DNA from: Escherichia coli
Lineage (GTDB): Bacteria; Pseudomonadota; Gammaproteobacteria; Enterobacterales; Enterobacteriaceae
Reading direction: 5' to 3' (one strand)
Length of the DNA: 951 bases
Assembly: GCF_003334765.1 (NCBI RefSeq)
Contig: NZ_QOWT01000093.1
Part shown: positions 1 to 951 of the stretch, piece by piece
Layout of the letters: the number at the start of each line of letters is the position of its first letter
Position numbering within the stretch: position 1 is the stretch's first letter
Made by a program: the position numbers and the translations under genes
Notes under the pieces: model-generated
What the model was told of the DNA's origin: nothing
Database searches by the model: none
Seen by the model: only the letters and a program-made list of their open reading frames with translations

Positions 1-222
1 CCCCTGCAGCGGGTCATAATAGCGGTGGCGGTTGTAATACAGGCCGGACTCCTCATCATACTGCTGCCCCGGCAGGCGGATAAGCTGCTGCAGCTGATGC
101 GGGTTCTCTTCATTCAGCAGGTTGCCCCATTCATCGTATTCTGCGCACCATTCTGTTGCCCCTTCCGTGCTGATAAGCGCCAGCGGCAGGCCGCGATGGT
201 CGCAGTGGTACAGGTGGATTTT
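1..222 (-). other. RHS repeat-associated core domain (C-terminal end of the Rhs core, immediately before the expected autoproteolytic DPxGL junction)
   Basis: The translation [74 protein letters not shown] has the characteristic shape Y-x-x-D-H-x-G-x-P ... W ... Y-D-x-W-G ... Y-D-x-E-x-G-L-Y-Y-N-R-x-R-Y-Y-D-P-x-x-G-R of the conserved Rhs C-terminal core domain. The domain is cut by the window edge. Confidence 0.75.
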
Positions 223-951
223 TCGCGCCGGCGTGTACACCGGGTCCATCTGGTTTTGCATCTGCTCCACGGTCAGGCCGCACGATGCCAGCCAGCGGCG
301 GCTTTCCTCACTCACCCGGTCAGCCAGGATTTCACTTTCCAGCCGGTCGAGCATCTGCACCAGCACCGGCGGGAACACCACACTGCCACCGTCTTCGCCG
401 CCGGACTGCTGAAGCGCATCCGCCAGGCTGCGGCGCTGCGTTTTCGCCAGCTCACCGGTGGCGGTTTCAACTCTGATGAGTGGCGTGAAGCTCCCCGGCT
501 GATAAATCGTCTGGATGCGGGTTCTGTCGTTCTGTATTGTGGTCAGCCGGTCGCCGTCCCAGCCGTACCAGGTCACTTGCGGTTTCCGTGACAGCGACAT
601 CCAGCCCGTCAGGTCCCGTTCACGCCGCCACACCCGTTTTGCCACCCTGCGGCCCAGCGGGTCGTAAAGATAGCGACTTTCGACCAGCGGCTCTTCATAT
701 TGTGTCCGCGTGTAGTGCACCAGCCGGTGCTGACTGTCGTAATGGTACCGGTGAGTCCGCTCATCATCCGTGCGGATAACCCCTTCCGGGATGAGGTCGG
801 TTTTCTCTGTCAGCCTGCCGTGACGGTCATACCGGTAAAGATAGTGCGCGTCACGGGCGATACGGTTATCCGGCCACATGCTGAGGGTGCTGTCCGGGTG
901 CAGCTCCGGGTCGGGCAGGCGGTTACCTGCCGGGTCTGTGGCATACGGGAT
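1..951 (-). CDS. Rhs family protein, conserved core region (YD-repeat polymorphic toxin, RhsA/B/C-like); partial at both ends, internal fragment
   Basis: Reverse-complement translation in the frame whose codons end at position 1 gives 317 codons without a stop. The product contains YD-repeat motifs ([48 protein letters not shown]) and the Rhs signature [35 protein letters not shown]...[22 protein letters not shown], which I recognise from enterobacterial Rhs cores. GC-rich codon usage fits Rhs cores. No start or stop codon lies in the window, so the true gene ends are outside it. Confidence 0.93.
538..843 (-). other. Block of YD (RHS) repeat motifs within the Rhs core (protein-level repeats, beta-shell region)
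   Basis: Four spaced motifs of the form aromatic-x-Y-D-x-x-G/H-R-L on the minus-strand translation: [12 protein letters not shown] (808..843), [12 protein letters not shown] (718..753), [12 protein letters not shown] (640..675), [12 protein letters not shown] (538..573). This matches the YD-repeat consensus GxxxRYxYDxxGRL. Confidence 0.75.

Follow-up and report, generated by a model that had tools for sequence, protein, structure and literature searches.

In the Rhs effectors whose structures have been solved, the plug domain closes off the cage and is an aspartyl autoprotease (PMC8765631, PMC8636562, PMC10684867). Tse5 has its C-terminal plug at residues 1092-1168, catalytic residues D1141 and D1164, and a cleavage site between L1168 and I1169 (PMC10684867), and Rhs1 of P. 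laumondii has its plug at 1263-1357, two DPLGL motifs of which the second contributes catalytic D1338, and a cleavage site between L1342 and A1343 (PMC8636562). The catalytic residues are D1324 and D1346 in P. protegens RhsA, which is cleaved at W1350 (PMC8765631), and D1369 and D1391 in A. baumannii Tse15 (PMC11461821). The spacing between the DPxG motifs has been given as x19 in Tse5 and x18 for Enterobacteriaceae (PMC10684867). Rhs cores, the C-terminal plug and self-cleavage by two aspartates are textbook material for the Rhs field.

Here we compare with these systems a window, meaning the whole 951-nt stretch of DNA that was analysed. It almost certainly comes from an rhs gene of the E. 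coli type (RhsA/RhsB/RhsC subfamily) and spans the 3' portion of that gene's conserved, GC-rich core. Its minus strand encodes the closing turns of the YD-repeat beta-cocoon, a linker specific to the family, the hairpin that ends the shell and the initial 46 residues of the C-terminal plug.

Reading frame, strand and identity of the window

Reverse-complement translation gives a single open minus-strand frame over the whole window, 317 codons long and open at both ends; the chance of such a frame is ~6e-5 by base composition, and the remaining two minus-strand frames are interrupted by stops. ORFs on the plus strand reach at most 188 aa in the ORF listing of the window. The longest of them, a GTG-initiated ORF of 188 aa at 25-591 that runs antisense to rhs, is most likely a by-product of GC-rich coding DNA. 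To read this ORF as the real gene on account of its length, and the Rhs-like frame as incidental, would be to set aside a minus-strand frame that is open throughout and matches the NCBIfam RHS_core model (NF041261) at E 6.9e-206, in the orientation in which genome annotations place rhs; long antisense ORFs are, moreover, expected in coding DNA of 62% GC, and we consider this reading wholly improbable. The rhs gene lies on the strand of the window's minus-strand frame in every genome annotation that was examined. The first-pass annotation had left the strand of its segment, 1-222, unstated; the segment is encoded on the minus strand and corresponds to the last 74 residues of the frame.

The window DNA is 99.8% identical to the annotated rhsB of E. 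coli STK39-3-E and 99.7% identical to rhsA of E. coli K-12, and matching sequence occurs in 3,889 of the 5,426 genomes compared (complete RefSeq E. coli genomes only), at a median of five copies per genome. At the protein level it equals STK39 RhsB (WP_406811839.1) without differences across the full window and differs from K-12 RhsA (WP_000015300.1) at two residues; it covers residues ~899-1215 in Rhs proteins of 1,377-1,411 aa, STK39 RhsB being 1,411 aa long. The match to RHS_core scores 686.7 bits over model positions 913-1229 of 1261, against a whole-protein cut-off of 2000 bits that a 317-aa fragment cannot reach; the full-length relative, at 2653.5 bits, lies above it. Both YD repeats (TIGR01643) and a TIGR03696 plug, partial in the window, are present, as in Rhs polymorphic toxins. 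The GC content of the window is 61.7%, and at a related locus (L001) the core, at 58-68% GC, gives way to 32-40% past the junction where the variable tip begins, a drop that lies outside the window. Nothing within the window conflicts with its explanation as a core fragment of RhsA/RhsB/RhsC. Several records labelled as plasmids that carry rhs matches are megabase-sized (1.0-4.8 Mb) and look chromosomal.

Domain layout and conservation

The features of the window are collected in Table 1. Residues 1-165 align to the shells of Tse5, S. bongori Rhs and P. protegens RhsA, and the Pfam RHS model matches residues 245-281 at E 5.2e-15. TIGR03696 scores 37.6 bits (cut-off 32.5) over residues 272-316, which correspond to model positions 1-42 of 76; the complete domain occupies residues 1170-1247 of the full-length relative, in which an N-terminal DUF6531 is followed by YD repeats. 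The window therefore holds 46 of the ~78 plug residues, and the catalytic half is absent from it.

Table 1 Features of the 951-nt window, with residue numbers (aa) counted along the minus-strand frame
Feature	Position (nt)	Strand	Evidence
rhs core ORF, RhsA/B/C subfamily, internal fragment	1..951	-	NF041261 match and 99.8% DNA identity
YD-repeat shell, last beta-cocoon turns (aa 1-165)	457..951	-	TIGR01643 YD repeat, E 1.8e-7; alignment to Rhs shells
Variable linker/insert (aa 166-243) between the anchors PGSFTPL and YHCDHRGLP	223..456	-	
Last YD-shell beta-hairpin, conserved 'RHS protein' motif (aa 244-271)	139..222	-	Pfam PF03527; AlphaFold2 strands
C-terminal plug / Rhs repeat-associated core (aspartyl autoprotease), first 46 residues (aa 272-317, YDEWGNLL...YYDPLQG)	1..138	-	TIGR03696; plug starts of Tse5 and Rhs1

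The three peptides that the first-pass annotation had quoted from 1-222 as Rhs core are real: the first, of 14 letters, lies at residues 245-258 (nt 178-219), EYDEWGNLL at residues 271-279 (nt 115-141) and the third, of 15 letters, at residues 303-317 (nt 1-45), all on the minus strand. Its description of this segment as the highly conserved part of Rhs cores also holds. When RhsB was aligned with six distant homologues (from Burkholderia, Eleftheria, Rahnella, Acinetobacter, Moraxella and Cupriavidus), identity to RhsB was 41% over residues 244-317, compared with 26-28% over the shell and 6% over the linker at residues 166-243, and it was higher still (56%) over the 32 residues directly beyond the window. 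Two E. coli records from the plasmid collection, CP088347.1 (L007) and CP044307.1 (L008), were left out of this alignment; their rhs core copies carry frameshifts or early stops in the stretch equivalent to the window.

The 782 residues that end at the cleavage site were modelled with AlphaFold2 (mean pLDDT 77.9, pTM 0.70). The model is a run of beta-hairpins, with residues 1-165 of the window made up entirely of them, and places the strands of the last shell hairpin at model residues 676-683, 689-694 and 699-705. The part of the plug that lies within the window is modelled at a pLDDT of ~73-78. Its catalytic tail (model residues 756-782) falls below 50, so the tail of the model should not be interpreted. 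A Foldseek search with the model returned Tse5 at E 7.5e-54 and a TMq of 0.75; the first matches were Tse5, Tse15, the Advenella VgrG-Rhs core and P. protegens RhsA (TMq 0.75), with Tc toxins and teneurins ranking behind them.

Plug boundary, catalytic aspartates and predicted cleavage site

The alignment to solved Rhs and Tc-toxin proteins was run with the downstream extension included, and the plug region aligns: window and extension together align to every solved Rhs effector of the T6SS type, and more weakly to Tc toxins and teneurins. The plug starts of Tse5 (1092) and Rhs1 (1263) both fall on residue 272 of the window, the Y of EYDEWGNLL, which is also where TIGR03696 begins. This boundary divides the segment for which the first-pass annotation had proposed a plug with an aspartyl autoprotease. 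The assignment stands for nt 1-138, which align to solved Rhs plugs, and does not extend to nt 139-222, which encode the last shell hairpin, upstream of the plug.

As had been anticipated from the window, the catalytic aspartates lie outside it. Alignment to P. protegens RhsA maps them to codons 6 and 28 past the window edge; once the difference of 60 between the chain numbering of 7q97 and native RhsA numbering is taken into account, RhsA D1324 and D1346 are the aspartates of the first DPIGL and the second DPLGW, respectively. In near-identical E. coli copies, the sequence runs on after ...YYDPLQG for 32 residues and then enters the toxin. The first catalytic Asp (DPIGL) is six codons past the edge, the second (DPLGL) 28 and the predicted scissile bond 32, so the PxxxxDPxGL junction that characterises Rhs polymorphic toxins falls outside the window. 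Over the next ~40 codons these copies are all in frame, with a 10-residue junction followed by x17-D(P/S)xGL, and DPIGL and the second motif D(P/S)xGL are present and in frame in all five; the spacing between the aspartates of the two motifs is 22 in each of 11 intact homologues. In the numbering of E. coli RhsA and RhsB, the predicted catalytic residues would be D1221 and D1243, and the predicted cut would fall between L1247 and residue 1248. The Asp of YDEESGL, at residue 298 of the window, was considered as a catalytic residue and rejected because RhsA D1324 and D1346 map to the two downstream DPxG motifs. Since the window stops six codons short of the first catalytic Asp, it contains the structural half of the plug and none of the plug chemistry.

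The mechanism that we propose for the full-length protein is drawn from solved homologues, which share 18-32% identity with the region that was modelled. By analogy with these, the C-terminal plug would spiral into the open end of the cage and seal it, and the two aspartates in its second half, in DPIGL and, 22 residues later, in DPLGL, would act as an intramolecular aspartyl protease. Cleavage would follow the second motif, at a bond predicted to join L1247 to residue 1248, and the freed variable C-terminal toxin would stay inside the cage until delivery. We infer autoproteolysis of E. coli RhsA, RhsB and RhsC from RhsA, Rhs1, Tse5 and Tse15 (PMC8765631, PMC8636562, PMC10684867, PMC11461821). 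For annotation, the plug at 1170-1247, the predicted D1221/D1243 and the predicted cut after L1247 are transferable to E. coli RhsA, RhsB and RhsC. At the DNA level, the stretch is in all likelihood also the near-identical repeat in which recombination between rhs copies exchanges their toxin tips, and displacement of tips via recombination in the core has been described (PMC2935791). Overall, the comparison supports the first-pass interpretation as a correct restatement of established knowledge, with refined boundaries.

A long linker in the E. coli Rhs cores

The linker separates the penultimate hairpin of the shell from the last one and corresponds to residues ~1064-1141 of E. coli RhsA. 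The distance from PGSFTPL to YHCDHRGLP is 84-89 aa in the E. coli Rhs core families, compared with 13-53 aa in six other genera, and in the alignment to solved structures the linker takes up only 4-6 aa in S. bongori Rhs and P. protegens RhsA and ~30 aa in Tse5. Its first half is acidic, rich in Gly and modelled at low confidence; the second half is modelled as a small bundle of three helices at a pLDDT of ~65-81. Across the linker, AlphaFold2 places helices at window residues ~176-182, 195-209, 215-223 and 228-235, with pLDDT values of 48-81. Searched alone against solved structures in the PDB, the linker gave no sequence match, even at E 10, and it has no match in Pfam. It is the only item here that lies beyond the coverage of the solved structures. 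One might picture it as more than a tolerated loop: a discrete helical sub-domain with a job of its own, for example as a gate for toxin release or a docking site for a delivery partner, but we hold this to be a long shot.

Delivery features and gene neighbourhood of the relatives

At the three loci examined, no vgrG, hcp or PAAR gene adjoins rhsB, rhsA or rhsC, and the full-length relative has no match to Pfam PAAR. The first ~30 residues of RhsB (MSGKPAARQGDMTQYGGSIVQGSAGVRIG; L001 3307-3720) show a weak and partial match to the end of a T6SS PAAR domain (E 0.014, 15.5 bits against a cut-off of 124), and DUF6531 follows at residues 46-123 of the full-length RhsB. Thus, among the full-length relatives, to which this assessment applies, we found neither PAAR/VgrG linkage nor a vgrG, hcp or Eag chaperone neighbour of the kind that marks T6SS delivery. 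The variable C-terminal toxin and its cognate immunity gene fall outside the window; the relatives differ in their tips and in the genes downstream of them (yhhH, yibA and ybfB).

Full-length gene, orphan cassette or mosaic allele

The first-pass annotation had taken the intact upstream part of the domain as an argument against a degraded pseudogene. The stretch is indeed intact, but the argument is weak, as a 5'-truncated orphan carries the same stretch open. This orphan lies downstream of rhsC in E. coli RM10042 (L004 7166-8686) and is annotated without an N-terminus; its core part, 7181-8131, has almost exactly the extent of the window, is 98.1% identical to it and contains no stops, and it continues into DPIGL...DSMGL and a different tip. 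The second cleavage motif of this orphan is degenerate (DSMGL, compared with DPLGL). We therefore caution against reading an intact window as proof of a functional full-length gene: a core fragment this long can be open in a silent orphan cassette as well as in a live rhs gene, and its openness alone does not tell the two apart.

The window could itself come from such a 5'-truncated, dissociated core fragment that is joined to a silent alternative toxin tip and serves as a recombination cassette instead of a working cage and plug. Besides the RM10042 orphan, K-12 has orphan core fragments as well (a 385-nt match), and Jackson et al. described dissociated tips whose attached core fragments vary in length, as is expected when recombination within the core displaces the C-terminus (PMC2935791); such tips can encode active toxin/immunity pairs (PMC3150448). 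However, the best matches to the window (99.7-99.8%) are full-length rhsA and rhsB, the single full-window orphan that was examined is more divergent, and there is no signature of truncation at window nt 951, where the frame simply continues. Because the best matches are full-length genes, we regard an orphan origin as unlikely.

A second question is whether the window represents a single genomic copy. No exact match to the full 951 nt occurs among the 5,426 complete E. coli genomes (best 99.8%). A 160-nt exact scan of species-representative genomes gave no matches, and the same 160 nt are present in several E. coli strains. The five sites that separate the window from STK39 rhsB and K-12 rhsA all lie in window 130-178, as a mosaic in which some states are rhsB-like and others rhsA-like. 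An assembler that collapsed near-identical rhs paralogues into a chimeric or consensus allele could produce this pattern, given cores at a median of five copies per genome, a full-length window that no complete genome matches, and a 3'-end of the gene whose 260 nt match rhsC and other alleles exactly, even though those rhsC alleles are only 98.5% identical over the whole window and rhsB and rhsA are nearest. Yet real gene conversion between paralogues yields an identical mosaic pattern, the window differs from real alleles by only 2-3 substitutions, and all five sites fall within 50 nt. As the collection consists of complete RefSeq genomes only, an allele from an unsampled strain is an equally simple explanation. 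We thus consider an assembly artefact improbable; judged from the sequence, the mosaic is consistent with gene conversion among paralogues or with an unsampled allele of the rhs core.

A possible rearrangement also concerns rhsA in several laboratory derivatives of K-12. In E. coli XL1-Blue (L003 5661-6749), rhsA is annotated as 5'-truncated and adjoins yghO/glcC instead of yibF, and the same type of match occurs in TOP10, XL10-Gold and Origami2. The truncated rhsA next to yghO/glcC suggests a chromosomal rearrangement with its breakpoint inside the rhs core.

Comparison with known systems

The most distant of the systems compared are the Tc toxin TcC proteins (TccC3 and YenC2) and the teneurins, in which the YD cocoon likewise ends C-terminally in an Rhs repeat-associated core but identity is only 11-16%. 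The plug region with its downstream extension matches TccC3 and YenC2 at E 2e-8 to 1e-5; for teneurins the values are 1e-3 and weaker. In Tc toxins, two proteins (BC) assemble the cocoon and a beta-propeller closes it. In teneurins the plug is uncleaved (PMC8765631). The window was considered as part of a TcC subunit, and this was rejected: similarity is remote, at 11-15% identity, and restricted to the plug (E 2e-8 or weaker), and the relative has DUF6531 and a single-chain cage, as is typical of bacterial Rhs effectors.

Closer are P. protegens RhsA (7q97), P. laumondii Rhs1/Tre23 (7pq5), Tse15 (8uxt) and S. bongori Rhs (8qjb-d), which align over window residues 244-317 and beyond with equivalent catalytic aspartates, at 20-26% identity. 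RhsA, Rhs1, Tse15 and S. bongori Rhs carry PAAR/prePAAR or clade N-terminal domains, whereas none was detected in the E. coli relative. The closest solved structure is that of Tse5 from P. aeruginosa (PDB 8cp6), to which the window sequence matches at E 3.8e-25. Tse5 and E. coli Rhs share the same order of parts, from a DUF6531 N-terminal plug through the YD shell to a C-terminal plug with two DPxG motifs, but they are only ~32% identical, and the Tse5 linker is ~30 aa long compared with ~80 aa.

E. coli RhsA, RhsB and RhsC (NF041261) stand nearest of all. The window differs from them in a mosaic of five variable sites, without an exact full-window match in 5,426 genomes, and shares with them the same GC-rich core, from which the relatives continue into the same DPIGL...DPLGL junction. 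The window is already-known biology, that of the founding Rhs family, in a copy that hardly differs from the E. coli K-12 genes with which the family was founded.
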